From: Candidatus Aenigmatarchaeota archaeon
Lineage (GTDB): Archaea > Aenigmatarchaeota > Aenigmatarchaeia > GW2011-AR5
Direction of reading: 5' to 3'
DNA: 64,000 bases
NCBI GenBank assembly: GCA_016193585.1
Contig: JACPRW010000006.1
Location: 293 to 64,292 of the forward strand
Within the stretch, counting starts at the first letter, position 1, and every line of letters starts with the position of its first letter. This document shows positions 2,023-57,795 of the stretch, in pieces. The notes below the pieces were generated by a model. It was not told the origin of the DNA. It saw only the letters and a list, made by a program, of their open reading frames with translations, and did no database searches. A program made the position numbers and the translations under genes.

Positions 2023-2093
2023 TCATCTTCATTCTGAAGTCAGGCGGGATGCTTAATAGCAACATCGCAAGAATTCCCTTTGCTTTATAGTGG

Positions 2094-2245
2094 ACCAACA
2101 AAAGAATACCAACATATTACTTTTGTTGTCCGCTACACGCGGAAAACAAGGTTTTCCGGTGCACCAAAAAGCTTTGCTTTTTGCGTGTACGTGAACCAAG
2201 ATATAATACCTGATTGTTTACTTGGTTCACTATAACTGGGGGTTA
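2094..2245. repeat. Composite palindromic MITE (family R6: TAGTGGACCAAC...GGTTCACTA with internal hairpins)
   Basis: Related copies at 29548-29715 and 31638-31750; TATAG / CTATA flanks. Confidence 0.75.
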
Positions 2246-6733: not shown

Positions 6734-7474
6734 TCAGATTTTCACTATTTTTGCGTACTTTCTGCTTTTCCTTATTTTCACGCGGTCGCCTGTGCGAAGC
6801 CCGGTCATGCGGGGGTCGTTGTCTGCCGATAGAAGCGCCCTGTTCCGGACAACAGTCACCGTAACCACGGAATTTTCCTTGAGAACAAGATGCTTTGCTG
6901 GTTCGGTGAGGTTATTGAAGGCGACGCCGATTCCTTTTGCGAACCGTTTCCGGGTAATGGAGTAATAATATGCGCCTGAACCGAACGGCGTCGAAACCGT
7001 TACGCCGTCGCCGACAAGCAGGCCGTTCACCTGCCTGCCGTTCACTGCAACCTCGAACCGTATGCAATTCGTCTGCTGCTTGTTGCGTATGACGACGTCG
7101 TTGAGGCATGTCGCTCTCAGAAGCCTGCCCTTATTCCGCACAACCGCCTCAAGCTTCATGGCTTTTTCGATGCGGTATTTTCCTGCCCTGATGCCCGACA
7201 GGATGATTCCAAGCGAGTCCCAGTCGCAGACGTTGCATATGGATTTGTTCCGTATCGGCAGCTTCGGTACGCCGGGATACGCGCGCTCAGCGTACAGCAG
7301 CGTTCCGTCGCCTCCCAGCGAGATGACGATATCAGGTCTTTCCTTTGTGTACCGCATACCTGCTTTCCTGATGAGCCTGCGGTACTGCGTGATAACGTGC
7401 TTGTTCTTGCCGACGATGAAGAACCTCAATACCCTGCGTTTGACGCTTCGCGCATCAAACGCATCGTATCCCAT
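6734..7474 (-). CDS. nadK: NAD(+) kinase
   Basis: GGDGTLL signature, about 246 aa. Confidence 0.8.
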   Translation of the reverse strand: MGYDAFDARSVKRRVLRFFIVGKNKHVITQYRRLIRKAGMRYTKERPDIVISLGGDGTLLYAERAYPGVPKLPIRNKSICNVCDWDSLGIILSGIRAGKYRIEKAMKLEAVVRNKGRLLRATCLNDVVIRNKQQTNCIRFEVAVNGRQVNGLLVGDGVTVSTPFGSGAYYYSITRKRFAKGIGVAFNNLTEPAKHLVLKENSVVTVTVVRNRALLSADNDPRMTGLRTGDRVKIRKSRKYAKIVKI

Positions 7475-8892: not shown

Positions 8893-9013
8893 GAATGATA
8901 TGCCCCTATATACCACCGACTGAAGTCGGTGGTTTCAGTGGGGCATGTCATCCCGAATGCCTTGTGTTTTATCTGCTGCCTGAAGGCAGCAGTTTTCAAG
9001 GCATTCAAGATAA
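8893..9013. repeat. About 120-bp double-hairpin repeat (family R8), second copy inverted at 52868-52990
   Basis: About 90% identity; perfect 20-bp palindrome ccaccgactgaagtcggtgg plus gaatgccttg...gctgcctgaaggcagc...caaggcattc hairpin. Confidence 0.75.
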
Positions 9014-9201
9014 GAGAAATCCTAGAATATCTTAAGCTTGATCCTGTGCCAGCAAAAGTTTACGACCTGAAAAAATTAGAAGGCAGTAAAGATAGTTTCA
9101 GAATCCGTATTGGAAAAATGCGGATTCTTTACACAATCATATGGAAAGATAAAGTCATACTGGTTTCGAGAATAGAGAAAAGGGGGACTGTCTACGATTA
9201 A
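8929..9201 (+). CDS. relE: Archaeal RelE (RelE/ParE family toxin)
   Basis: ILEYLKLDPVPAKVYDLKKLEG...IRIGKMRILYTIIWKDKVILVSRIEKRGTVYD resembles aRelE; 5' portion overlaps repeat R8. Confidence 0.7.
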   Translation: MVSVGHVIPNALCFICCLKAAVFKAFKIREILEYLKLDPVPAKVYDLKKLEGSKDSFRIRIGKMRILYTIIWKDKVILVSRIEKRGTVYD

Positions 9202-10706: not shown

Positions 10707-12107
10707 TCATTGCTTTTTGACCACGCCGGGCTTCGTCAGCTTCCTGAGTTCGAGAATCCTGTCCAGGTCGCCTGCCGGCAGCAGGTTCATCGCGAGCACC
10801 ACGTCCCTGACGGTCTTATTCTCCCTGTATGCCTTCCTGGCGACTTCAGCCGCCTTCTCGTAGCCTATATACGGGTTGAGCGCGGTGACGACGATGGGAT
10901 TTTTCTCCAGATACTCTAGGCATTTCTTTTCGTCCGCTGTTATTCCCCTGATGCATTTTTCCGTGAACGCGCTTATGCCATGCGCAAGTATCTCTGTCGA
11001 GCCGACAAGGTTGTACGCAATCACCGGCATCATGACGTTGAGCTCGAGCTGCGATGCGCCCGTCGCGTTGGCGATGGTTACGTCGTTGCCCAGCACCTGA
11101 TACGCCGCCATGTTGAGCATCTCTGCCATGACGGGGTTCACTTTCGCCGGCATGATGCTCGAGCCGGGCTGCACCGGCGGCAGTTCTATTTCTGCCAATC
11201 CTGTGGAGGGCCCTGAAGCAAGCAGCCGCAGGTCGTTCGCAATCTTTGTCAGGGTGACTGCAAGATTGCGCAATGAAGCGCTTACCGTTACCTCGGCATA
11301 GGTATTCTGCATCTCCGCAAAGAGGGTAGGCGGCGTGCGGTACGATTTTCCGGTTATTCTGTTTATCTCTTCAATCACGTATGCAACGTATTCAGTCTCC
11401 GCGTTCATTCCAGTCCCTGCCGCGGTGCCGCCTGCCGGCAATTCCAGGAGCGAATCGGCGGCTGCCTGTACTTTCCTGATGTCCTGCGCGATCGCATACG
11501 CGTAGCCGGAAAACTCCTGCCCGAGCGTCATCGGCACGGCGTCCATCAGGTGGGTGCGCGCTGACTTCAGTACATCAGAAAATTCATTTGATTTCTCCTC
11601 AAGCGCGCCGTGCAGCTGTTCCAAGCTCTGTAGCAATCCGTCCAAGGCATCCAAGGCGGCTATGTGTATCGCCGCGTGGATGATGTCATTGGTCGACTGC
11701 GCCATGTTGACGTGGTCGTTCGGGTGGACGAGCTTGTACTCCCCCTTCGCTCCGCCCAGCAGCTCAGAGGCGCGGTTCGCCAGCACCTCATTCATGTTCA
11801 TGTTCTGCGACGTGCCGGCGCCTGCCTGGTAGACATCGACGACGAACTGGTCACGAAGCTCTCCGGCGATTACTTCATCCGCAGCTTTGACGATGGCATC
11901 TCCGATTCGCTTGTCGAGCCTGCCGGTCCGGATGTTCGCGAACGCCGCCGCCTTCTTCGTTATCGCCTGCGCCTTCACGAAGCGCTGCTGCAAGCGCAAC
12001 CCTGATATAGGAAAATTAGCAACCGCCCGCTGCGTCTGCACGCCGTAATACGCGCCAACCGGAACGCGGACTTCGCCGAGGTAGTCTTTTTCGGTGCGGA
12101 AGGACAT
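10707..12107 (-). CDS. Class II fumarate hydratase / aspartate ammonia-lyase family
   Basis: GSSIMPAKVNP signature (GSxxMxxKxN), 466 aa. Confidence 0.8.
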   Translation of the reverse strand: MSFRTEKDYLGEVRVPVGAYYGVQTQRAVANFPISGLRLQQRFVKAQAITKKAAAFANIRTGRLDKRIGDAIVKAADEVIAGELRDQFVVDVYQAGAGTSQNMNMNEVLANRASELLGGAKGEYKLVHPNDHVNMAQSTNDIIHAAIHIAALDALDGLLQSLEQLHGALEEKSNEFSDVLKSARTHLMDAVPMTLGQEFSGYAYAIAQDIRKVQAAADSLLELPAGGTAAGTGMNAETEYVAYVIEEINRITGKSYRTPPTLFAEMQNTYAEVTVSASLRNLAVTLTKIANDLRLLASGPSTGLAEIELPPVQPGSSIMPAKVNPVMAEMLNMAAYQVLGNDVTIANATGASQLELNVMMPVIAYNLVGSTEILAHGISAFTEKCIRGITADEKKCLEYLEKNPIVVTALNPYIGYEKAAEVARKAYRENKTVRDVVLAMNLLPAGDLDRILELRKLTKPGVVKKQ

Positions 12108-12163
12108 GGTATTTATTTGAACAAGAAGCGTTAAATGTTCTTATTCGTGCCGGAACAGTGGCG

Positions 12164-13120
12164 CTATGCTACACGCTGTCTTTTCTTTTTGGGTACAGGT
12201 TTATTTTCTCTTTTCTTTTTTGCCTGATCGAAATGTTCTAGTTCTTTTTCATAATAGTTACTTAAACCGATGTTGCCTTCGCTTTGCGCTTTTCGGAGCT
12301 TTAGCTTATGAATCTCTATTTGCCTTTCCAGTGACCTAATGCCCTTTTTTGCGCGCTTTTTCGTGACATAGGCTATCTTTCCCTCCAGAAAAGAAACCAG
12401 CTTCATTATGGTATCCTTCGCCAATGAATGTGCTGGAATTCTTTCCCCATCTCTCCCTGCTCTATACGCATTCATAATGACAGAAAATTCTTTCATAGTT
12501 ATTCCTTCGCTCAACATTTCTTTTTTCAGCGACTTGGTTGAATATTTTTTATTAGTTAGAAAATATTCTATTAGTAAAATCTCCTTCGAGTGCATCACGA
12601 GCGGGTAAACTATATTCGTCACGTTATCACTCGCTTTCAGTAGTTCCTTTGTTATATTTAGTGAAGATTCTATCAGTTCAACCCTTTTCTCCACTCCATA
12701 GAATTCTGCTTTTCCCATCTTTAACGTACTGAGAAATTGGTGATTTATGAAGGCTACGGCTTCATCATTAATCATTTTATAGAATATTGGATCATGCACT
12801 AAAGCATTTCTTACATCTTCTATGGTTTTTACCTGTATATCATATTTCTTCTTCAATTCTGCCGGGACTTTTATTTCAACATCACCGTCAGAAACTAGCA
12901 AAATGTCAATATCAGATTCGTCTGATAATTCTTTTCTTGCTGCCGAACCGTAGAGAATTCCGCTAATGATATGCTCCAGCGGCATTTTGCTCACAACATC
13001 CTTTACAGGGTCTTTAGGTTCCTCGAGTAATTCTATGCGTACTCTTCCGCCTATCCAGTCCTTAGGTACGTAAACCCCTCCAGAGTTTCCATACTTCTTT
13101 ACCGTTTTCATTATTGGCAT
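12164..13120 (-). CDS. Fusion protein: AbrB/MazE-like swapped-hairpin domain + minimal nucleotidyltransferase (MNT) domain + helical Lys-rich C-terminus
   Basis: N-terminal VKKYGNSGGVYVPKDWIGGRVRIEL (AbrB-like); YGSAARKELSDESDIDILLVSD (GS-x9-DxD NTase motif). Confidence 0.5.
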   Translation of the reverse strand: MPIMKTVKKYGNSGGVYVPKDWIGGRVRIELLEEPKDPVKDVVSKMPLEHIISGILYGSAARKELSDESDIDILLVSDGDVEIKVPAELKKKYDIQVKTIEDVRNALVHDPIFYKMINDEAVAFINHQFLSTLKMGKAEFYGVEKRVELIESSLNITKELLKASDNVTNIVYPLVMHSKEILLIEYFLTNKKYSTKSLKKEMLSEGITMKEFSVIMNAYRAGRDGERIPAHSLAKDTIMKLVSFLEGKIAYVTKKRAKKGIRSLERQIEIHKLKLRKAQSEGNIGLSNYYEKELEHFDQAKKKRENKPVPKKKRQRVA

Positions 13121-13184
13121 GTATATGTATATACATAGTATATACTTAAAAGTTTAATCCTAACTGGCTATCAAAAGAAAACTG

Positions 13185-14648
13185 CTATTCAATATCAATC
13201 TGCGCCCTCTGCAGCTTCCCGCTGTAATCGATGTACACGGTCTTCACTTCGCTGAACTCGTCGATGCCCATAATGCCAGCTTCACGGGTGCCATTGCCCG
13301 TCTGCTTGATGCCGCCGAACGGCAGGTGCGTCTCCGCGCCGATGGTGCTCGCGTTCACGTACGTGATGCCTGCATCTATCTTCTCTATTGCCTTGAACGC
13401 TACCCCGATGTCGTTCGTGTAGATAGACGAGCTGAGACCGTATTCGACGGCATTCATGGCGTCTATCGCTTCGTCGAGGCTTCTGACGGAAATCAGCGAA
13501 AGGACGGGACCGAATATCTCCTCCCGGGCGATGCGCATATCGATGGCAACATCGGTGAAAATCGTCGGCCTGAAGAAGAAGCCTTTCTTTCCGTATCTCT
13601 CTCCTCCGCATAGTATTTTCGCTCCCTCTTCCATGCCTATTGACGTGTAGCGCTCGGATTTTTCCAGCGCTGCCCTGTTGACCAGTGGACCAACGTCAGT
13701 TGCAGGGTTCATGCCGGAGCCAAGACGCAGTTTTCCAGCCCGCTTCACGAGGTGCTGCTCCAGCTTCTTCCGTACCTTCTCGTGCACGATGACGCGCGAC
13801 GCAGCGGTGCACCGCTGGCCCGTGGTACCGAAGGCTCCCCATACGACGCCGTCCACCGCGAGCCCGATGTCCGCGTCAGGCATGACGATGATGCCGTTCT
13901 TGCCGCCGAGCTCCAGACCGACGCGCTTGATGCCCGCGTGCTGCGTTATCCACAGGCCGGTGTCGCGGTTGCCGGTGAAGGAGATGCCGAGCACTTTTTT
14001 GTGCCTCACGAGTGCGGTGCCTGCAGGGTCTCCCGGGCCGGTAACGAGATTGACCACGCCTTTCGGCACGCCAGCCTTCTCGAGAATTCTAACAAGTTCA
14101 ACCGCGCACAGCGGCGTATCTGATGACGGCTTCCAGACGACGCTGTTGCCGCAGACAAGCGCGGGCGCGAGCTTCCACGCCGGTATGGCGATGGGGAAGT
14201 TCCACGGCGTTATGAGTCCGACCACGCCGACCGGACGCCGCACGGTCATGCAGAACTTGTTCCGCAGCTCGGACGGCGTCGTCGCACCGAAGAGCCTTCG
14301 CCCTTCGCCTGCCATGTATTCAAAAATGTCAATAGCTTCCTGCACATCACCGCGGGCTTCGGTGAGCACCTTGCCCATTTCAACGGTTTCCAGTCGCGCC
14401 AAACGCTCCTTGTTTTCTTTTAGAAGCTGTGCAATCCCCAGCACTATTTCTCCCCTTTTCGGCGCAGGGGACGAAGACCACGCTTCAAATGCGTCCCCGG
14501 CGGCGTCAACAGCTGCCGAGATGTCCTTTGCGTTGCTCTTCTGGAATCTCCCTATGGATTGTTCAGTCGCCGGATTAAGGGATGGAAAGGTTTCGCCAGC
14601 GGCAGATAGCACCCATCTGCCGGCGATGTAGTTTTTGTAGATTTGCAT
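13185..14648 (-). CDS. Aldehyde dehydrogenase family protein
   Basis: 487 aa, ELGGKN and catalytic Cys region (GQRCTAA) motifs. Confidence 0.85.
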   Translation of the reverse strand: MQIYKNYIAGRWVLSAAGETFPSLNPATEQSIGRFQKSNAKDISAAVDAAGDAFEAWSSSPAPKRGEIVLGIAQLLKENKERLARLETVEMGKVLTEARGDVQEAIDIFEYMAGEGRRLFGATTPSELRNKFCMTVRRPVGVVGLITPWNFPIAIPAWKLAPALVCGNSVVWKPSSDTPLCAVELVRILEKAGVPKGVVNLVTGPGDPAGTALVRHKKVLGISFTGNRDTGLWITQHAGIKRVGLELGGKNGIIVMPDADIGLAVDGVVWGAFGTTGQRCTAASRVIVHEKVRKKLEQHLVKRAGKLRLGSGMNPATDVGPLVNRAALEKSERYTSIGMEEGAKILCGGERYGKKGFFFRPTIFTDVAIDMRIAREEIFGPVLSLISVRSLDEAIDAMNAVEYGLSSSIYTNDIGVAFKAIEKIDAGITYVNASTIGAETHLPFGGIKQTGNGTREAGIMGIDEFSEVKTVYIDYSGKLQRAQIDIE

Positions 14649-22904: not shown

Positions 22905-25900
22905 ATGTATTCTCAGATGCGCATGAGCAAAAGCCTGTTTGAAGTAGTTGTCATACTTGTATTCGTATTCTTCGTTCTTTTCCATTATCAGCTTTCTCCG
23001 ACGGCAAACGTTACTGCAGCAGCTTCTGCACGGAGCAAGCTCGGCCTCCACACCAGTTTCCAGAACGGTGATGCGTGGAGAACCATACAGGAAGCAAAGC
23101 CGGCTGTTGTCAAGCTTTTTGGCGAATACAGGCAAGCAGCTGAAATCAAACAGGTCTCGCCATGCACGTTTATTGTGGCAAGAACAACACAACCTCAGAA
23201 TAGCCAGCGCTATGATGGAGCCCCCGAAGACAGGGCCCAGGATTGGTTCAATACCTATAAGGATACCATACAAGCTTATCCACGTATTGATTGCTGGGAA
23301 GGGTACAACGAGCCGCCTGCCCAGAATGCCGACCAGATGCGGTGGATAGGGCTTTTTGAAAAGAAGCGCGTCGAGTTGCTTGCAACGATCAACGCCAAGG
23401 CGTGCATAGGTTCATTTCCTGTCGGCAATCCGTCGATACCTGACACATGGCGCGAATTCTATCCGGCGTTTCAGGCAGCGAAGGAGAAGGGCGGTTTCCT
23501 CGCCCTCCACGAATACGGTCCGCCGAGCAACATGCAATGCTATTTCAGCGGCGACGGGCCATGGCTCAATGGTAGATACCGGAAGGTATACAATCAGTAC
23601 CTCATCCCCGATGGCCTCGTCATACCGCTCGTCATGACTGAAGCAGGGATAGACGGCGGCTTATGCGACCAGCGTGGCTGCGAATGTAACCTATGTCGTG
23701 GTGATGCAGAGAATAAATGCGGCTGGAGAGCGTACGGAATAAGCACTGAGCGGTATATGAACGACCTCAGATGGTACGATTCTGTCATCAAGGAGGACAG
23801 CTACGTCATCGGCGCCACCATATATCAAACCGGCATTCCGGGGTGGAGGAGCTTTGAAACATCTCCTGAACTGACGCAGCCGCTCATCACCTACATCAAC
23901 CAGGTCCCTGCGCCGACGCCGCCGAATTGTCCTGTTACTAGTGCTCCGCCTCCCCCACCGCCTGTACAGAAAGGCACAGTCGCAGGCACGGTCACCGACG
24001 AGAACACGGGCTTTGGCATAGGGGAAGCAACGATACGCATCGTTAGTACTGGCATAACAGGTCGACCTATGTCCCCTGACGGCGAGTACACCATTCCCGA
24101 TGTCCCTGCCGGCACCTATACGGTCACTGCGTCTGCTTCAGGGTATCTGTCGCAGTCAAAGGACCTCCAGGAAGTGAGAAACGGGGAAACGACAACGGTT
24201 AACTTCGAGCTGATCCCCGTCCCTCCGCTTGAGGCGTGCTCGCCGAACTGTTACATTGGCGATGAAGCAGGTTATGATAAACTCTGTGCTGGCGGCACGC
24301 AGAATATCTGCGGCGGCACCAAGAACTACGGCGACGTCGTGAGCTGCAGCGAAGGCGCTGCTGAATTCGATGCTCTCTGCAGGCTCAACAGGGACGACCC
24401 GTTCATCACGTATCACACATGGTCTGAGTGCAACACTGATGCTCCGGAGAAAGGCGGGCCGAACGGCGACATTGCTGACGCAGGAACGGTGTGCGAGGCC
24501 AACGGTCGCTGCGGCGCTGGCGTGCAGGGTTCATACCTCTGCGCCCAGTTCAACGGAGCAGAGGATACGTGGGTTGCCTGCGGCACTGATGTCGCAAGCG
24601 GCGGCGATATTGTTGTTGGTTCAACAACATATAATTGCTGCAGCGGTGTCTGGCAGACAACGACATGCGGCGTAACGCCTCCTCCACCGCCTCCGCCGCC
24701 GACGCCGGTAAACAAATGCACCGCCTGCGGGAGGCCGTGCCTGCGGCTCGACAGGACTATCGGCCAGTGCACGGCTGCGCTCCAGTGCATCGGCGTGCAG
24801 TCATACGTTGACGGCAAGCGGTGCTGCGCTGACGAGGACTGTTCTCTGGGGCAACAATGCACCAACGGCGCGTGCGGCGCTGCGGTGAGTCCGGGATGCG
24901 CCAATCTCGCGGCGCGCTTCCAGCGCGACCTCAACGGCAACGGCCAGCCCGACGGCAGCGACGGGCCATGGGAGCAGAGCCTGCAGGCATCGTCCGGCGA
25001 TTCCATCAACGTCGGCCTCATCGACACGAACACCATGGGCTACCCGTCGGCAACGCTCCGCGCCAGCGGCCCTAGCTTCAGCCAAACATTCAGCAGCAAT
25101 CCTGCCAATTTCAGGCCACAGACAACAGGCACCTACACGCTCTCTGCGCAGTCAGGGTCGTGCACTGCGCAGGCGACGCTGACGGTGACAGGAACGAGCA
25201 CTGCGTGCGCTGACAGCACATCGCTCAGTGCGTGTTCGGCGACCAAGCCGAAGTACTGTGATGCTTCTGGAACACTCCAAGAAAACTACTGCTTCGGCCC
25301 TGACCGGGTCGCGGGCAACGCTGATGACTGCGGGTGCTCATCAGGGGCGTGTCAGGCAGACGGCAGGTGTGGCACAGCGCTCCCTCCGCCACCTGTTGCC
25401 GATGGCGGTCTCATCCGCGCCATACAGGACGAGTTCGGCGTCACCATGCAGGGCACCTGGAGTCCTTACCCGCAGCACCTGCGCTGGATCTATGAAAAGT
25501 TCTGGGAACTGAAGCAGACCAACCCAACGTTCATGCAGATGCTGCGCGGCAGGCCGATCTGGTGGGCAACCTGCTGCCCGAACCAACTGAGCGGCTACGT
25601 GCAGATGCCGACAACCGGCAGCTATGCGTACCGCGATGCCTTCATCACGACGCTGCTCCATGAACTGGGCCATGATATTTACTTCAATCGCCGCGATGCA
25701 GGGGCACTGACAGCGCGGTACGACGCGCACTTCGACGCGAACGGCAGGCAGGTCTTCACGAGCTACGCGAATTATTATGCAGCCGATTTCAACCGCCGGA
25801 CAGAGAATTACGCCGAGGTGATTGCGTACTGCCTCACCGGCGATGCAGTGGCATACCATTCCCGTGTGCAGCCGCAGTGGATCGACACAACAAAATGGCA

Positions 25901-28829
25901 GACCTATGAAGATCTCGCCAAGGAAATAACAGGCGGCTTGTGCAAGACGAGCGTGCCGCCGGATCCTGTATGCTCTGACGGCACGGCACTCGGCGCCTGC
26001 TCCTCGCAGAAGCCCCTCCACTGCATGTACCGGGGCGACCTCGTCGAGGACTGCGAACCATGCGGCTGCGCGGCAGGAAGGTGCGATACAACGAGTGGCA
26101 GGTGCATATCGTCATTCACCATTTCAGGCACGGTGAGCGACGTAAGCGGCAACCCGCTGCCGGATGCAGTACTTACGCTTACAGAAAATAGATTCTACGT
26201 CATTGCCAGATCTCGAACAGACGGTTCTGGCAGGTTTTCTATTCCTGATGTACCGCAAAGCACTTATGAATTGTTCTCTCGAAAAGAATGCTTTGAAAGC
26301 GCTTCTGAAACGATCGATCTGGCAGCCGACTACACCAAAAATTTCAGGCTGAACGATGCAGTGCTCGGCAGGGTTGAAATCAACCCTGCTTCTTCACAGA
26401 TCGAGGCTAATCAAAAAATGCAGTTTTCTGGCGCTGCATTTGATGCGAATAACAGGGGCATGCCTGCCCGCTTCAGCTGGAGCTCGGACAATACGAACAT
26501 CGGGACCGTGACCAGCACGGGCGAATTCGAAGGCAGAAACGAAGGCAGCACTACTGTCCGCGTCAGCGCCACGTGCGGCGCGACAACGCGGAGCGCTTCT
26601 GCGACGGTGACCGTACTGCCATCAGGGAGCATCGTGCTCAAACGATGCAGCGAAGCTGATGCGAGCACACCGACGAAAGTAGACTACGTGCTCATTCCGG
26701 AGCAGTCATACACCAGCATCGACGAATTCAAGCGGGATGTAGAAACAAACTATGTGCCAAAGCTCTTTTCGATATCCCCAATTGACGCGAACAAGCAGAA
26801 GTTCAACATATATTATTACGAAGAGAAGGCAGTATGCGACCGCGACGGCCCGAAGGGCACAAAACTCTGCACGCTGCCTTCAAATCTCGGCCATGACTGC
26901 CCGTTCGCAGACATAAAAGCTGTCATCCATAAAGGCACCTGGAGAGACTACGCGATGAGAGACCGTACCTTCACCGCCAACAGCCCCATAACGCAGGTGC
27001 ACGAGATCGGCCATGCGCTCTTTGATTTAGCCGATGAATACTGCTGCGATGGCGGCTACGAAATGCGCGAGCCATACCCGAACATATTCGTCGAGCAGAA
27101 CAGCTGCCAGCAGCAGCTCGACGACAACGGGATAGCGAAACGGTGCAAGCGGCTATGCAAGGACGAGGACCAGGGAGCGTCATGCATCCTCGGCTGCGAC
27201 TGCATTAACTGGTACCGCCAGGAAGGGAAAAGCATCATGAACAACCAGTTCATCTACGAACAGTTCAGCGAAAACAACCTGCTCAGGGTAAACGACGTGT
27301 TTGGGGTATATAGCTCTGGTTCTCAGACAACTCCACAACAAACTTCGCTCGCGAGCTGTATGGCAATTACCAGTCCGGGAACCTATGTGATCGGAGCAGA
27401 CCTGCGCTCAGGCGATACGTGCATGACAATCCAATCATCCGATGTTACGCTTGATTGCGCAGGCAAAAAACTCGAGGGCACGGGCTATAGAGGAAGCGGT
27501 ATCCGCATAGAGGGAAGCGGAACTATACGGAACGTAGAAGTAAAGAATTGCATCGTGAAAGGATATGAAACAGGCATTATCGCACTCAATGGAGAGACTA
27601 TACGGATAAAAGACAATGATGTATCTGATAATTACGATGATACGAAAGGCTGGACAATGAGCAAGTGCACTGAAGACTTAGCACGGATCGGTATCGCAGG
27701 CGAAACGGAACGGAATAGGAAATGTGACATCTGCTTCAAGGCAGGGCGGTGTGGTGTGTTTCTCGGCGACCCCGAAGGCACTGGCATCCACCTCAAGAAT
27801 ACGAAATCGAGTGTTATAGAAAACACTATAGCCCATAATACAGGAATTGGCATCTGGCTTGAAAGCAGCGACAGTAATCAGGTTAAAAATAACGACGTCT
27901 CGTACTCAACTGCATTCGGCATCTACCTACTGGGAGCCAGTAACAGCGTCGTCGAAAACAATATTGCAAATGACGTTACCCGTAACTGCGCGTACTGGTG
28001 CTCTGAAACCGGATGCATCAAAGGGTGCGATGCCACGGGCATCATACTCGAGTCGCGGTTTAGGGACAATGAAAATAACATTATCAGAAAGAATACAGTA
28101 CTGAGGGGAGGCGACGGCATTTTCCTGAAACCAGGCGGGACATTCTGCAGCAACAACAATGAGATCGCAGAAAATGATGTTTCAGGGGCGTTCACCAACT
28201 GCATCGAAGTGACCTTTTGCAACGGCAACAGAATCAAGAGCAACAAAGCCCACAACTGCCCTATCGGATTGTGGCTCGGGTACGCGACCAACACCCTGGT
28301 CGAGGGTAATGAATTCATAAGCAATGCAAATGATGCCATCAATGCTGAAAACAGCAAAGGCAATACCATAAAGCGTAACGTGATTAGGCGCGGCGGGAGG
28401 GGCATCTATCTCTGGAAAAATCCTGTCACTGACCCGATTATCGAAGGAAGGAAAGTAGCAAACCCGCAGCTCAGAGAGCCATTCCCATCTTCCAATCACA
28501 TCATAGAAAGGAATACAATAGAAAATGAGCGGGGGATAGAGTTCACCGATACCGACACAACAGAAATCAGGTACAATACCATTAAAACTAAGGAAAACAT
28601 CATGCTCACGAGGGGTTCAAGCGGGGTGAAGATTTTCAGCAACAACCTGCTCTGCGAAAACTGCCTGTTTTCAGTCAAAAATGACCAGGACATTACCGTG
28701 AATGCGCAATACGATTGGTGGGGCACCGCGGATACGGCCCAGATAGAGCGCATGGTGTACCACAAGACCGATAATACTGCCGTGGGAGAAGTATACTATA
28801 CGCCGACTTTGAGTGGCACCTATGTGTGA
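22905..28829 (+). CDS. Giant (1974 aa) secreted multidomain surface protein: GH-A-like TIM barrel, Pro-rich linkers, Cys-rich modules, CarboxypepD_reg-like domains, two HExxH zincin-like domains, Ig-like (Big_2) domain, C-terminal parallel beta-helix repeats
   Basis: N-terminal TM/signal; WEGYNEP + MTEAGID (GH-A acid/base and nucleophile-like); PPPPPP(V) and TPPPPPPPPTP linkers; LLHELGHD (25659-25673) and VHEIGHALFDLADEY (26999-27013); >15 PbH1-like repeats res about 1500-1960. Confidence 0.85.
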   Translation: MYSQMRMSKSLFEVVVILVFVFFVLFHYQLSPTANVTAAASARSKLGLHTSFQNGDAWRTIQEAKPAVVKLFGEYRQAAEIKQVSPCTFIVARTTQPQNSQRYDGAPEDRAQDWFNTYKDTIQAYPRIDCWEGYNEPPAQNADQMRWIGLFEKKRVELLATINAKACIGSFPVGNPSIPDTWREFYPAFQAAKEKGGFLALHEYGPPSNMQCYFSGDGPWLNGRYRKVYNQYLIPDGLVIPLVMTEAGIDGGLCDQRGCECNLCRGDAENKCGWRAYGISTERYMNDLRWYDSVIKEDSYVIGATIYQTGIPGWRSFETSPELTQPLITYINQVPAPTPPNCPVTSAPPPPPPVQKGTVAGTVTDENTGFGIGEATIRIVSTGITGRPMSPDGEYTIPDVPAGTYTVTASASGYLSQSKDLQEVRNGETTTVNFELIPVPPLEACSPNCYIGDEAGYDKLCAGGTQNICGGTKNYGDVVSCSEGAAEFDALCRLNRDDPFITYHTWSECNTDAPEKGGPNGDIADAGTVCEANGRCGAGVQGSYLCAQFNGAEDTWVACGTDVASGGDIVVGSTTYNCCSGVWQTTTCGVTPPPPPPPPTPVNKCTACGRPCLRLDRTIGQCTAALQCIGVQSYVDGKRCCADEDCSLGQQCTNGACGAAVSPGCANLAARFQRDLNGNGQPDGSDGPWEQSLQASSGDSINVGLIDTNTMGYPSATLRASGPSFSQTFSSNPANFRPQTTGTYTLSAQSGSCTAQATLTVTGTSTACADSTSLSACSATKPKYCDASGTLQENYCFGPDRVAGNADDCGCSSGACQADGRCGTALPPPPVADGGLIRAIQDEFGVTMQGTWSPYPQHLRWIYEKFWELKQTNPTFMQMLRGRPIWWATCCPNQLSGYVQMPTTGSYAYRDAFITTLLHELGHDIYFNRRDAGALTARYDAHFDANGRQVFTSYANYYAADFNRRTENYAEVIAYCLTGDAVAYHSRVQPQWIDTTKWQTYEDLAKEITGGLCKTSVPPDPVCSDGTALGACSSQKPLHCMYRGDLVEDCEPCGCAAGRCDTTSGRCISSFTISGTVSDVSGNPLPDAVLTLTENRFYVIARSRTDGSGRFSIPDVPQSTYELFSRKECFESASETIDLAADYTKNFRLNDAVLGRVEINPASSQIEANQKMQFSGAAFDANNRGMPARFSWSSDNTNIGTVTSTGEFEGRNEGSTTVRVSATCGATTRSASATVTVLPSGSIVLKRCSEADASTPTKVDYVLIPEQSYTSIDEFKRDVETNYVPKLFSISPIDANKQKFNIYYYEEKAVCDRDGPKGTKLCTLPSNLGHDCPFADIKAVIHKGTWRDYAMRDRTFTANSPITQVHEIGHALFDLADEYCCDGGYEMREPYPNIFVEQNSCQQQLDDNGIAKRCKRLCKDEDQGASCILGCDCINWYRQEGKSIMNNQFIYEQFSENNLLRVNDVFGVYSSGSQTTPQQTSLASCMAITSPGTYVIGADLRSGDTCMTIQSSDVTLDCAGKKLEGTGYRGSGIRIEGSGTIRNVEVKNCIVKGYETGIIALNGETIRIKDNDVSDNYDDTKGWTMSKCTEDLARIGIAGETERNRKCDICFKAGRCGVFLGDPEGTGIHLKNTKSSVIENTIAHNTGIGIWLESSDSNQVKNNDVSYSTAFGIYLLGASNSVVENNIANDVTRNCAYWCSETGCIKGCDATGIILESRFRDNENNIIRKNTVLRGGDGIFLKPGGTFCSNNNEIAENDVSGAFTNCIEVTFCNGNRIKSNKAHNCPIGLWLGYATNTLVEGNEFISNANDAINAENSKGNTIKRNVIRRGGRGIYLWKNPVTDPIIEGRKVANPQLREPFPSSNHIIERNTIENERGIEFTDTDTTEIRYNTIKTKENIMLTRGSSGVKIFSNNLLCENCLFSVKNDQDITVNAQYDWWGTADTAQIERMVYHKTDNTAVGEVYYTPTLSGTYV

Positions 28830-29547: not shown

Positions 29548-29800
29548 GCGCCATTCTATAGTGAACCAAGTAAACAATCATGTATTACATCTTGGTTCAC
29601 GTACACCCAAAAAGCAAAGCTTTTTGGTGCACCGGAAAACTTTGTTTTCCGCGTGTAGCGGACAACAAAAGTACTATGCCGGTATTCTTTTGTTGGTCCA
29701 CTATAACTCTGGTTTGTCCCCTTAAAACCTTGAAAAACGCATGTTGTATCAAATGACAGAATTTTGTATAAATATTTCTGTCACTTGCTGCAAGGAGATG
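29548..29800. repeat. Composite MITE (family R6) plus partial family R3 unit
   Basis: TAGTGAACCAAG...TTGGTCCACTA with TA flanks; similar to 2094-2245. Confidence 0.75.
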
Positions 29801-31385: not shown

Positions 31386-31519
31386 TTTACCACCTCATAT
31401 TTATTACTTATTAATAGTAAATATTAGTATATAAAGTTATCTGTGCACTCCGCATACTTTCCCGTAGGCAACGAAATTGCATCTCCTTGCCTTGGTATTA
31501 AAAATATCGCTCTTCCCCT

Positions 31520-31800
31520 TTATAGCTGACCAACTTAATATTCAGGTATTACACAAGTTGGTCACCTATAGTGAACCAAGTTATAGATAATTGCGCAGCT
31601 TATGTCGTATTAACGCGCAATTTTCTATAGGTGAATTGCAAATAATATCAGGACATATAGTGAACCAAGTAAATAATCAGGTATTGTATCTTGGTTCACT
31701 TATAGCGGACAACAAAAGTAATATGTCGGTATTCTTTTGTTGGTCCACTATAACCAGTGCAATTCACCATATAATATCCGGATTCTTTACTTGGTTAACT
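31520..31800. repeat. Nested mosaic of palindromic MITEs (families R6, H3 aattgcgc..gcgcaatt, H4 ggtgaattgca..tgcaattcacc); a 113-bp R6 element (31638-31750) is inserted inside the H4 loop
   Basis: Uninterrupted H4 copies at 49711-49754 and 55401-55444 give the empty site ggacaTAaccag; TA duplicated at 31636-37 and 31751-52. Confidence 0.8.
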
Positions 31801-32578
31801 ATAACTGACTGATACAAAAACATGCTCCGTTAGAAAGAAATTCAAATATTTTGTTGCATCGCTGTTTCTGTTGTTGTATTTGTTTTCGTATAAAGAAACG
31901 TACAAATGCAGGTTCTTTTTGCACACGCCTTTGAACATCTCAAGAAAATGTCTCAATCCCTGAAACGCTCCTTCTATGGTGTTCGTATGAACGTCTCCAC
32001 GCACGTATTCTTTTAGCGAGTGATTGGCAGTGGCGTGTCTGTATCCTTTTTTCTTCAGCGAATTGTAATAGTAAAGAACATTGATTTTGGAACATTTTAT
32101 GATGTTCTTTCCCTATAGCAGATTGCAGCTAAAAGTTCCATTATTATTACAATCTGCTATAAGCTGTGAAATCGTCTGTGTACACAGACGATTTTTTGTC
32201 AATTCTTTTCGGCACTTTGTTAACGCTTCTCTTTCGCATGTTTGGCAAAACCCGCAATGTAATCTTTCCTTTTCTCTCCACGCTGCCAACAATCGGCGGC
32301 TTGTCTTTGTCGTATGTCCCGCGTCCGCGCAATTTCAGGCCGCGTTTTCTAGGCGGCCTTTTGAGCGTTTTGGAGCCTTTTTCGCCTGCTGCGATGTACA
32401 TCTCGTCGATTTCCACTTTTCCGGAAAGCGTTTCCAAGAAACGCTTTTCATAAACGTTGTTCATGATTTTCTTCGCTATTGTGTGGATGTTCTTGTACTC
32501 CCTGCCAAGCTCCTGGGTTATCTTGTTTATGGAAATTCCGCGTTTCAATTCCTTTGCAATGTAAACCCATTCCCGCAA
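31795..32578 (-). pseudogene. IS1595-family (ISXO2-like) transposase gene interrupted by a 92-bp MITE
   Basis: N-part ...VEIDEMYIAAGEKG...VYTDDFTAY | insertion | NSLKKKGYRHATANHSLKEYVRGDVHTNTIEGAFQ... C-part; removing 32068-32159 plus one TA restores an uninterrupted YTDDFTAYNSLKKKGY frame across the junction. Confidence 0.75.
32068..32159. mobile_element. MITE (family R1) inserted into IS1595-family transposase ORF with TA target-site duplication
   Basis: TA at 32066-67 and 32160-61; element termini ATAG...GCTA; deletion restores reading frame. Confidence 0.8.
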
Positions 32579-32791
32579 AGGAATTTTTGAGGCATCAAAA
32601 ATAGTTCCGGTCCTTTCTGTAAAAGATTTTCCGCAACTTCTATTACCCGTTAGCCTACGCGAGGATGACGCAAGGCGAACGAAACGTCCGCTGGCGTAGG
32701 AGAACCTCCGGTTCTCCTCACGTAGGCGACTTTTTCAACAAAGCCAATCGTGCAAGAATCTTTATATACTTTATATTAATATCATATTAAG

Positions 32792-36814: not shown

Positions 36815-36920
36815 GTTATAGCTCTACAAGGAAACAAACAGGATATTATTTCCTTGTGAGCTATAGGTGAAACCAGTTGTAACATATCCAGATTATTTAC
36901 TGGTTTCACTATAACAACTA
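36815..36920. repeat. Palindromic hairpin repeats (agctctacaaggaaa..tttccttgtgagct; ggtgaaaccag..ctggtttcac) with TATAG/CTATA flanks
   Basis: Direct reading; related to units at 55196 and 88-268. Confidence 0.7.
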
Positions 36921-37861: not shown

Positions 37862-37960
37862 AACAGATATAGCAGGTGACAGAACTATTCAGACAACGTT
37901 CTGTCCTTGCTGCAAGGAGATGACATTAGGAACTGTATGAAAACTAATGCCATCGACTAG
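37862..37960. repeat. Palindromic MITE, family R3
   Basis: See 14690-14790. Confidence 0.75.
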
Positions 37961-49588: not shown

Positions 49589-49790
49589 GTAAAGAACATT
49601 GATTTTGGAACATTTTACAATGTTCTTTCCCTATAGCAGATTGTGGTTAAAAGTTCCATTATTATTACAATCTGCTATAGATAATTGCGCAGCTTATGTC
49701 GTATTAACGCGCAATTTTCTATAGGTGAATCGCAAATAATATCAGAACATAACCAGTGCAATTCACCATATAATGTCAAACAAGAAATAA
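49589..49790. repeat. MITE family R1 followed by H3/H4 hairpin units
   Basis: See 10570-10672; intact H4 at 49711-49754. Confidence 0.8.
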
Positions 49791-52869: not shown

Positions 52870-52990
52870 TTTTTCTTTATCTTGAATGCCTTGAAAACTG
52901 CTGCCTTCAGGCAGCAGATGCAACACAAGGCATTCGGGATGCCATGCTCCACGGAAACCACCGACTTCAGTCGGTGGTATACAGGAGCAT
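52868..52990. repeat. Second copy (inverted) of about 120-bp repeat R8
   Basis: See 8893-9013. Confidence 0.75.
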
Positions 52991-53149: not shown

Positions 53150-53425
53150 TGACAAATGACCTTAATGGGATAGACGCTTATAGCAGATTGTAATATGGAG
53201 AAATGCGCAGCATATGTCCTTAGAGGCTGCGCATTTCTCATCTAGCGAATTGCGTTTTCATAGGTCATAAGCAACGCAATTCTCTATAATAATGGAACTT
53301 TTAACCACAATCTGCTATAGGGAAAGAACATTGTAAAATGTTCCAAAATCAATGTTCTTTACTATTAATTATAGCAAGGACAGAACTTTGTCTGAATAGT
53401 TCTGTCACTTGCTATAGTATTCAGC
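53150..53425. repeat. MITE family R1 carrying a nested 101-bp family-R5 element (53186-53286) in its hairpin loop, followed by a family-R3 unit
   Basis: Empty site gtaaTAataatgg present in other R1 copies; TA duplicated at 53184-85 and 53287-88. Confidence 0.8.
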
Positions 53426-55147: not shown

Positions 55148-55450
55148 CACAAGTCTTATAGCAGGTTCGAATGAAAAGTTCCAGTAGTATTCGAACCTGC
55201 TATAGCTCTACAAGGAAATAAACACGATACGAGGAGAATCGAAGATTCTCCTGTACAGGTGGATTCATGGAATCCACCTTGTATTACTTCCTTGTTTGCT
55301 ATACATGGTGAAACAACGTTTCACCTGTACAGGTAAAGCTTTGCTTTGCCATGTAGGTGACGCAAATGTATAATATCGGTATTATTTATTTGCTTCACTA
55401 TAACGCGCAATTTTCTATAGGTGAATTGCAAATAATATCAGGACATAACC
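55148..55450. repeat. Tandem array of MITEs: R2 unit, AGCTCTACAAGGAA-type element (copy of 157-265), H4 unit
   Basis: Direct comparison with copies elsewhere in window. Confidence 0.8.
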
Positions 55451-55528
55451 AGTGCAATTCACCATATAAAGCAAACACAGAAACAGCCGAACGGCAAATC
55501 TCAAAAAGTTGAAGAACATACATGGCTC

Positions 55529-57699: not shown

Positions 57700-57795
57700 T
57701 TCTTATAGCAGATTGTAATAATAATGGAACTTTTTACCACAATCTGCTATAGGGAAAGAACATTGTAAAATGTTCCAAAATCAATGTTCTTTACT
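57700..57795. repeat. Palindromic MITE, family R1
   Basis: See 10570-10672. Confidence 0.8.

Follow-up and report, generated by a model that had tools for sequence, protein, structure and literature searches.

A 93-bp hairpin element nested in the loop of another within a TA-flanked, MITE-like mosaic of an Aenigmarchaeota genome

A 93-bp two-hairpin mobile element lies, between two TA dinucleotides, within the loop of another small hairpin element in the stretch of DNA analysed here (hereafter the window: 64,000 nucleotides of a Candidatus Aenigmatarchaeota contig). This nested insertion is real and well resolved, a clear and essentially ordinary example of MITEs, small transposable elements without coding capacity, jumping into one another. 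The elements involved are discrete and TA-flanked, they form multicopy composites, they occur in related genomes, and they nest at sites for which empty and filled versions can be compared; the empty sites used throughout are paralogous (H4, A and J units, an IS1595 ORF and an IS1595 end). As the best explanation we consider it highly probable that they are non-autonomous, TA-flanked, MITE-like elements which are moved in trans and accumulate in each other's AT-rich loops.

Results

R6 splits the loop of H4

We keep the family names of the original prediction, with R6 denoting the inserted element and H4 its hairpin host. The H4 unit (GGTGAATTGCAAATAATATCAGGACATAACCAGTGCAATTCACC) is found uninterrupted at two sites in the window, where none is expected from shuffles, and split at 31628-31771. 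BLAST matches 31611-31657 to 55401-55447 on the left side of the split and 31750-31774 to 55445-55469 on its right side, both at 100% identity, so the H4 flanks are colinear and overlap only on (A)TA, that is on the TA plus one fortuitous A. All coordinates of the split unit are those from BLAST; a three-way MAFFT alignment of H4 misplaced the 95-nt gap. The inserted DNA reads TAGTGAACCAAG...TTGGTCCACTA, and while intact H4 has one TA at the target (GGACA-TA-ACCAG), the filled site carries a TA on each side:

55420-55463, plus strand: uninterrupted H4, exact (0 mismatches), preceded by the right half of E
49724-49767, plus strand: uninterrupted H4, 2 mismatches, preceded by E
31628-31655, plus strand: H4 left arm and left loop part, 100% identical to 55418-55445
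31656-31657, unstranded: TA, left target copy for R6 (one TA in intact H4)
31751-31752, unstranded: TA, right target copy for R6 (from sequence and BLAST flanks)
31753-31771, plus strand: H4 right loop part and right arm, 100% identical to 55448-55466

Aligning the interrupted with the intact copies thus leaves an insert bounded by TA on both sides and H4 flanks that are colinear, and the two paralogous empty H4 sites bear out what had been predicted, a discrete repeated element in the loop of another between duplicated TAs. Everything qualitative in the original prediction stands, while its insert size, start and intact-H4 coordinates have to be revised: the insert measures not 113 but 93 bp (31658-31750), and the second TA brings the extra DNA to 95 bp; the start given for it, 31636, falls within the left arm of H4; and the figures for the intact copies (49711-49754 and 55401-55444) were 13 and 19 bp too low. 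Nor is the H4 sequence quoted there identical at the 49.7-kb copy, where 2 positions differ.

Short and long forms of R6

The ends of R6 are inverted repeats (18/22 nt; 0 of 300 shuffles as good), yet the element is not the single unit with simple terminal repeats it had been taken for but consists of two tandem hairpins, G and H, whose single-stranded DNA fold has a z of -8.8. R6 is present in 3 copies in the window, and the one at 31.6 kb is the short form of a family of about 145 bp, whose long copies are also located in unrelated unique DNA:

31658-31702, plus strand: R6 hairpin G, TAGTGAACCAAG...CTTGGTTCACTTA (inverted repeat I10, 11 nt at 100%)
31703-31750, plus strand: R6 hairpin H, TAGCGGACAACAAAAG...CTTTTGTTGGTCCACTA (96% identity to the H part of a long copy, 29656-29707)
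29559-29703, plus strand: long R6, composed of hairpin G, a core N of about 50 bp (two mini-hairpins) and hairpin H; TA-flanked
2088-2232, minus strand: long R6, second copy; TA-flanked

Short and long forms differ exactly by the N core (...CACT-TATA-GCGG versus ...CACG-TA-[N]-TA-GCGG). Since the tripartite form is shared with a relative (L089, see below) and a TATA is left at the junction, the short form was probably derived through clean loss of N with both TAs kept.

The 279-bp mosaic

R6 in H4 lies innermost in a stack of elements that measures 279 bp and occupies one TA. In this stack, an E+H4 pair sits between TAs within the loop of an outer G-like unit, which adjoins a further hairpin, I; the halves of the G-like unit, when joined via one TA, give a normal 43-nt hairpin with the family loop motif TAATATCCGGATT. 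E is the constant left partner of H4 and directly precedes it at 31584, at 49678 and, in truncated form, at 55401. The minimum-energy fold of 31519-31805 matches the nesting:

31521-31522 (left) and 31802-31803 (right), unstranded: TA on either side of the entire mosaic, where the intact IS copy reads CAGT-TA-AAGG with one TA only
31523-31568, plus strand: hairpin unit I, TAGCTGACCAACTT...AAGTTGGTCACCTA (inverted repeat I4, 16 nt at 94%; fold)
31569-31581, plus strand: outer G-like hairpin, left half, TAGTGAACCAAGT, pairing with 31790-31801 (inverted repeat I3; fold)
31582-31583 (left) and 31772-31773 (right), unstranded: TA flanking the E+H4 block (from sequence)
31584-31627, plus strand: hairpin unit E
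31774-31801, plus strand: outer G-like hairpin, right half (inverted repeats I1 and I3; fold)

The order of events, outermost first, would then be that hairpin I and the outer G-like hairpin entered at a TA near an IS1595 end, followed inward by the E+H4 pair, which would have gone into the loop of the outer hairpin, and then by the 93-bp short R6 into the loop of H4.

Two insertions in an IS1595 copy

The mosaic is placed within a broken IS1595 copy, the only IS in the 64-kb window, whose transposase pseudogene lacks the N-terminal zinc-ribbon part and has suffered a separate insertion:

31507-31520, minus strand: outer 14 bp of the IS1595 terminal repeat, TCGCTCTTCCCCTT, with the mosaic now between it and the remaining IS
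31804-32636, minus strand: decayed IS1595-family body, 84-87% DNA identity to the intact copies L092 and L093; Pfam DDE_Tnp_IS1595
32068-32159, plus strand: B+A composite of 92 bp (two hairpins) in the transposase frame; TA at 32066-67 and 32160-61

The outer 14 bp match ...TA-AAGGAGAAGAGCGA at the end of L093, an intact IS copy from a different sample, and similarity stops exactly there. On the minus strand the window reads ...GTATCAGTCAGT-TA-[mosaic]-TA-AAGGGGAAGAGCGA, the mosaic being bracketed by CAGT-TA and TA-AAGGGGAAGAGCGA, whereas L093 reads ...GTATCAGTCAGT-TA-AAGGAGAAGAGCGA (CAGT-TA-AAGGAGAAGAGCGA) followed by the IS tip. As L093 has a single TA where the window has TA-mosaic-TA, the mosaic grew from one TA, which is at the stop codon of the transposase gene, 14 bp short of the IS terminus. 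The second insertion is exactly reversible in silico: deleting the B+A composite (92 bp) plus one TA restores the transposase ORF (...YTDDFTAYNSLKKKGYRH...HTNTIEG...), which is then colinear without gaps to 5 intact homologues at 78-90% identity, and its match to the Pfam profile DDE_Tnp_IS1595 grows from positions 1-91 (42 bits) to 1-147 (83 bits). The elements are hence able to land in coding sequence. We dismissed IS1595 itself as the mobiliser, its ends (TCGCTCTTC...) being unlike those of the elements and the IS itself a victim of two insertions.

Further nesting in the window

Three further nested cases are present in the window. One is the N core between G and H of the long R6; the other two, for which intact A and J units can be compared with the interrupted copies, repeat the pattern of a single TA versus two TAs seen with H4:

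53196-53286, plus strand: M + E' units nested at TA in the loop of A (host A 53179-53319; intact A 57704-57751)
55230-55281, plus strand: N-type double mini-hairpin nested at TA in the loop of J (host J 55201-55303; intact J 36817-36865)

The N-in-J composite is seen again, inverted, at 155-255 and must therefore have moved after nesting, so composites stay mobile as whole units. That elements insert into one another and so build mosaics, as originally predicted from R6 and H4, consequently applies more widely than claimed. It extends to E+H4, itself nested at the TA of a third unit, to the three cases above and to the whole mosaic, which occupies a single TA of the IS1595 copy with the empty site visible in its intact relative; the insertion in the IS1595 transposase gene, undone by removing the element and one TA, is an independent case of insertion at a TA.

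A superfamily of hairpin modules

In the window as a whole we count 20 repeat regions that total 3,164 bp (4.9%) and comprise about 66 hairpins. These belong to at least 13 hairpin families built on a module of 43-48 bp (TA:TAG-stem-loop-stem-CTA:TA, the colon marking the boundary). The families share little beyond TATAG, and their stems differ yet remain complementary. Most modules occur in fixed two-hairpin composites of about 92-97 bp, arranged head to tail with a shared TATA, or of about 145 bp where there is an extra core of roughly 50 bp made of two mini-hairpins. The window holds the following composites:

B+A: 6 copies
C+D: about 4 copies
E+H4: 3 copies
G+H (R6): 3 copies
B'+A': 2 copies
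J+K: 1 copy

An alignment of the 5 uninterrupted copies among the 6 of B+A leaves nearly every one of the 92 element columns unvaried, with sequence divergence setting in just outside the TAs. On reading the displayed sequences, TA is found on both flanks in 12 of the 15 elements that have both ends in unique DNA; every inferred target is TA, and an A comes next in 11 of 12 sites. Tandem junctions have a single shared TATA, where an element simply inserted into a flanking TA should leave TATATA. Elements are AT-rich (36% GC versus 53% for the rest) and dense in TA (98/kb versus 37/kb), so that 4.9% of the sequence contains 12% of all TAs. Comparison with the ORF list places every mapped repeat region between genes, except for the two insertions in the IS, and no ORF was noted within the elements (units of 43-150 bp).

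Folded as single-stranded DNA the elements reach z values of -4 to -9, and compensatory changes are seen in 12 of 44 consensus pairs (six elements, two genomes). Terminal inverted repeats vary among composites: R6 has 18/22 and C+D and J+K have 14/22, while B+A (6/22) and B'+A' (5/22) are at shuffle level, with only TA(A/T)AG common to their ends. Composite orientations, by our own count from the sequence display, are roughly 13:6.

Genomic setting and relatives

The window is archaeal, with about 52% GC, and its genes include those for a TRAM-domain protein (archaeal aIF2-beta-like similarity), RtcB and glutamyl-tRNA synthetase, followed by an Rpb7-Spt4-S24e-S27e cluster. In the syntenic relative L089 (RtcB 80% identical), homologous tripartite hairpin-N-hairpin elements are present at 7268-7473 and 11513-11665, one of them with a second N in a loop, and a J unit at 14517-14564 has 94% identity to J of the window; element positions differ between the two loci. 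A pair of hairpins bounded by TATA also turned up in L002, an Aenigmarchaeota MAG that is less closely related. Pyrophosphatase relatives in a genome scan reached at most 60% identity. An exact pattern for the H4 arm had 0 matches in genome and metagenome contig collections, among which the source genome was not included, and a 23-mer of the N core that is conserved across species had 0 matches in viral and metagenome contigs. Logan contigs (SRR121134xx) with the neighbouring genes stop inside the first repeat, at about 31546-31548 and at 32135; that independent short-read assemblies break exactly at the repeats helps explain why such MAGs are fragmented.

Discussion

How the mosaics may arise

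Our findings suggest that the basic modules are palindromic, AT-rich and non-coding, and that the units which actually move would mostly be hairpin pairs. As they encode nothing they must be mobilised in trans, presumably by integration at a TA dinucleotide that leaves TA on both sides. Since their stems are relatively GC-rich and their loops AT-rich, most TAs usable as targets are located in the loops and TATA ends of elements already present; this, together with insertions into elements or dead ISs being selectively free, would account for nesting. Insertions into dense coding sequence would be purged, and new copies would pile into old ones to form nested and tandem mosaics. Landing in a loop should not, however, be taken as proof of structural targeting: all three TAs of H4 lie in the loop anyway, so loop position alone is no evidence for it. 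We infer the class of the mobilising enzyme and its location outside the window, as well as the direction of the event, which would be insertion rather than excision.

Apart from the unrelated broken IS1595, no transposase was found in the 64-kb window, nor any DDE_3, HUH, TnpA, TnpB or (serine) recombinase gene, when about 47 of the 114 listed ORFs of at least 120 aa, picked as likely real genes, were scanned with Pfam or NCBIfam. The window likewise holds no cognate autonomous IS with matching ends, its sole IS having ends unrelated to those of the elements. TA on both sides would fit a 2-bp duplication, a 2-bp crossover core or an element with its own TA inserted beside a TA alike.

Weighing the alternatives

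Our first choice for the enzyme, tentative as it is, is an IS630/Tc1-mariner-like DDE transposase with a 2-bp staggered cut at TA, because TA duplication is the hallmark of that group and the pneumococcal MITE RUP likewise hits IS elements. B+A, however, moved as a unit although it lacks terminal inverted repeats, which is awkward for a classical repeat-dependent transposase. This absence, shared with B'+A', and families that have little in common keep in play an enzyme that reads structure or acts on a TA core, a possibility we regard as somewhat less probable, part of the weight going to neither. It might be an HUH enzyme (IS200/IS605, RAYT) that reads a short terminus plus hairpin, or an IS607-like serine recombinase, for which TA would be a 2-bp core of strand exchange, and then the two TAs would be no true duplication. 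Such an enzyme, doubtful as we hold it to be, would suit B+A (six copies, one of them cleanly inserted in a gene) and B'+A' with a different hairpin at each end, the 13 or more families that share only TATAG despite divergent but complementary stems, and hairpins which are strongly stable as single strands. IS200/IS605 ends are indeed subterminal hairpins without terminal inverted repeats, and IS607 is flanked by the identical dinucleotide on both sides. Against it speak gene lists for the relatives' loci which, like the window, show no gene of the Y1/HUH, TnpB or serine-recombinase type, the conserved TATAG inside the palindrome on both strands, unlike the one-sided GTAG of REPs, and orientations of about 13:6 where IS200/IS605-type insertion in one replichore should produce a strict strand bias; R6 itself, moreover, has good terminal inverted repeats.

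Other readings question the event rather than the enzyme. Were the filled H4 ancestral, the intact copies would stem from precise excision or deletion of R6, and short R6, which resembles the long element minus its core with TATA left behind, indicates that clean module loss does occur here. We nonetheless find this quite unlikely, given two intact H4 copies versus one filled and R6 copies that are also present in unrelated unique DNA; a loss leaving exactly one TA would have been needed twice, or before E+H4 spread, and R6 would be a discrete mobile unit either way, so the substance of our finding stands. We give similarly little credence to hairpins that are chiefly functional and under selection (as RNA stabilisers, terminators, small RNAs or protein-binding sites), with mosaics reflecting that function. 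While the compensatory stem changes, a conserved loop motif ((A)ATATCAGGTATT-like) in several families and genomes and the intergenic location all agree with function, Rfam gave no match at gathering thresholds and, at E <= 1, only two chance-level ones unrelated to the elements; two insertions destroy an IS, which is a non-functional context, and copies are found in both orientations at positions that are not conserved relative to syntenic L089. A functional role would in any case be compatible with mobility. Hardly credible, finally, is that nesting arose as a chimera of short-read MAG assembly or when dispersed repeats underwent homologous recombination. In favour of such an origin, the DNA comes from a metagenome-assembled genome and independent short-read assemblies break at the repeats. 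The junctions, however, have only TA or TATAG in common with other elements, a match much shorter than any k-mer of an assembler and insufficient for homologous recombination; this architecture is present at several loci and in another genome, and the flanks are colinear to the base.

Comparison with known systems

The elements are small, non-coding, multicopy and dispersed, and the comparison of empty with filled sites yields a target-site duplication, although the TA pattern is formally that of a 2-bp crossover core too. The generic definition of a MITE therefore fits them, except that some composites are devoid of terminal inverted repeats and the window offers no partner IS. In behaviour they are closest to the TA-flanked bacterial MITEs Correia, RUP and ERIC, and their architecture recalls REP/BIME/REPIN mosaics. 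Plants are well known for nested insertion of MITEs, which has also been reported in bacterial MITEs; self-insertion and nesting are well documented in Stowaway and Tourist MITEs. Bacterial MITEs are described as ending in TA and duplicating it at the target, as occurring in long and short versions set apart by a 50-bp core, and as hitting ISs preferentially (PMC2229807).

Correia elements (CREE/NEMIS, Neisseria) resemble those of the window in being small, AT-rich and without coding capacity, in ending with TA and in duplicating a TA target, and neither group has a known transposase. Both come in two size classes that differ by an internal segment of about 50 bp (~107/~155 bp for Correia, 93/~145 bp for R6; PMC2229807), and the Correia termini (TATAGTGGATTAAC...; PMC5039591) resemble those in the window (TATAGTGAACCAAG / TATAGTGGACCAAC). 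When aligned to the 26-bp Correia inverted repeat (tatagtggattaac...; PMC5039591), H4-left and H-right score 13 versus 6 +/- 2 in shuffles, a score that spans about 28 nt and is reached by 2-4 of 500 shuffles before correction for 36 comparisons. This resemblance is partial, weak past TATAGTG and fails under multiple-testing caution, so we do not assign the elements to Correia but treat the likeness as a weak lead. They also differ from Correia in their archaeal host, in arms that are complete hairpins, in many families with unrelated stems and in composites without terminal inverted repeats.

With RUP of Streptococcus pneumoniae and other IS630/Tc1-mariner MITEs, among whose kin are Stowaway in plants and SM1 in Sulfolobus, the elements share a TA target with its duplication, as is typical of IS630/Tc1-mariner, and mobilisation in trans. 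Unlike these MITEs, they have smaller modules (43-48 bp) and include B+A types lacking terminal inverted repeats; no IS630-like partner emerged among the scanned genes of the window, nor did a matching terminal-repeat similarity. Also common to both is a pronounced preference for IS elements, whose transposase genes are inactivated, as described for RUP (PMC2229807).

Very short palindromes, intergenic mosaics of alternating modules, mobile doublets and a conserved structure with variable stems are features in common with REP/BIME/REPIN (RAYT) sequences. The loops of REPs are targets of other elements, too (IS1397 in E. coli). REPs, however, have a one-sided GTAG, no target duplication and a tied RAYT gene. 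We set REP/REPIN-RAYT membership aside given the symmetrical TATAG, the TA on both sides and a window without an HUH gene. To palindrome-associated IS200/IS605 elements the likeness is in the different hairpin at each end without terminal inverted repeats (B+A and B'+A' but not R6), and to IS607 in the same dinucleotide on both flanks; both groups are common in archaea. IS200/IS605, in contrast, use a one-sided target of 4-5 nt, while the elements described here use TA only (usually TAA) and are not strongly biased in orientation.

Significance

Full-text literature searches found no description of MITEs in Aenigmarchaeota, to which our analysis adds a rich and cleanly delimited MITE-like superfamily. 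In a census of MITEs in 183,000 genomes, the top genome-wide coverage was about 1.2% and DPANN, to which Aenigmarchaeota belong, were densest among archaea (PMC11602168); element density in our window lies well above that maximum, bearing in mind that a single window need not represent the genome. The scaffold of the nested stack is dated, being an IS copy of which an intact relative exists, and this turns the stack into an ordered series of insertions and a natural test case for site choice by TA-targeting elements. Composites without terminal inverted repeats raise the concrete question of which enzyme moves them. One answer, which we think unlikely but worth stating, is a mobilisation system of Aenigmarchaeota that needs only a TA:TAG terminus and a hairpin of arbitrary sequence at each end, and which would be either the equivalent of REPIN/RAYT in archaea or a recombinase, structure-guided or acting on a TA core, that has yet to be described. 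If true, such a system would explain dozens of families with divergent stems, composites devoid of repeats and self-targeting of loops, and it would be able to fill about 5% of a reduced, symbiont-type genome.

Decay of the IS1595 host copy

The nested stack of hairpin elements, the mosaic, lies in a decayed insertion sequence, near which we also find a single small hairpin:
31507-32636, minus strand: decayed IS1595-family insertion sequence
32698-32728: single mini-hairpin, GGAGAACC-TCC-GGTTCTCC, with CGTAGG repeats on either side

Hairpin elements have hit the IS1595 copy twice: one insertion lies in the DDE domain, the other 14 bp from the IS end. Intact relatives with 78-90% identity are present in other samples. 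Its transposase has lost the N-terminal zinc-ribbon part, and the mini-hairpin sits where this coding part would be expected. Possibly, the mini-hairpin is a third small insertion in the IS1595 copy.

Probable decay is also seen in one composite of two hairpin modules, C and D:
37867-37959: C+D composite with a degenerate internal junction

Here, the internal junction reads TGCA rather than TATA and the right flank is GA instead of TA. This looks like an older copy in decay.

Contig breaks at the mosaic

In independent short-read assemblies of the same organism, contigs end exactly within the first hairpin repeat on both sides of the mosaic: Logan contigs L087/L088 stop at about 31546-31548, and L084/L085 begin at about 32135. 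The hairpin elements are a direct cause of contig breaks.

Resemblance to Correia repeats

The left arm of the split hairpin unit H4 (31626-31657) and the right arm of its insert R6 (31719-31752) resemble the Correia inverted repeat of Neisseria, with which they have TATAGTGGA..AACAAAA..ATCAGGACA in common. With an alignment score of 13 (shuffles, 6 +/- 2), this likeness may be due to chance or to a transposase type in common.

Other features of the window

Scans of the whole window (1-64000) found no tRNA genes with ARAGORN and no Rfam families at gathering thresholds. Other features are:
12001-14000: low-GC stretch (47%)
12164-13120, minus strand: ORF combining a DUF2080 'putative transposon-encoded' motif and a nucleotidyltransferase domain in one protein
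22905-28829, plus strand: 1,974-aa protein with CarboxypepD_reg, Big_2, NosD and right-handed beta-helix domains

The ORF falls within the low-GC stretch. The 1,974-aa product probably belongs to the giant surface proteins that are common in DPANN archaea.

Repeats shared with other Aenigmarchaeota

Distinct from the TA-flanked hairpin elements is another repeat family in the window:
8894-9019 and 52872-52990: two copies, inverted relative to each other

Its members consist of two larger hairpins, each with a mini-hairpin inside after TATATA, and a copy 75-78% identical occurs in another Aenigmarchaeota MAG (L094, 6228-6340).

Relatives of the TA-flanked elements themselves, hairpin-core-hairpin elements or TATA-bounded hairpin pairs, are present in other Aenigmarchaeota genomes, a syntenic relative (L089) and a more distant MAG (L002):
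L089, 7268-7473, 11513-11665 and 14517-14564
L002, 8282-8375

Their positions are non-orthologous to those in the window. The hairpin-element superfamily is phylum-wide rather than strain-specific.
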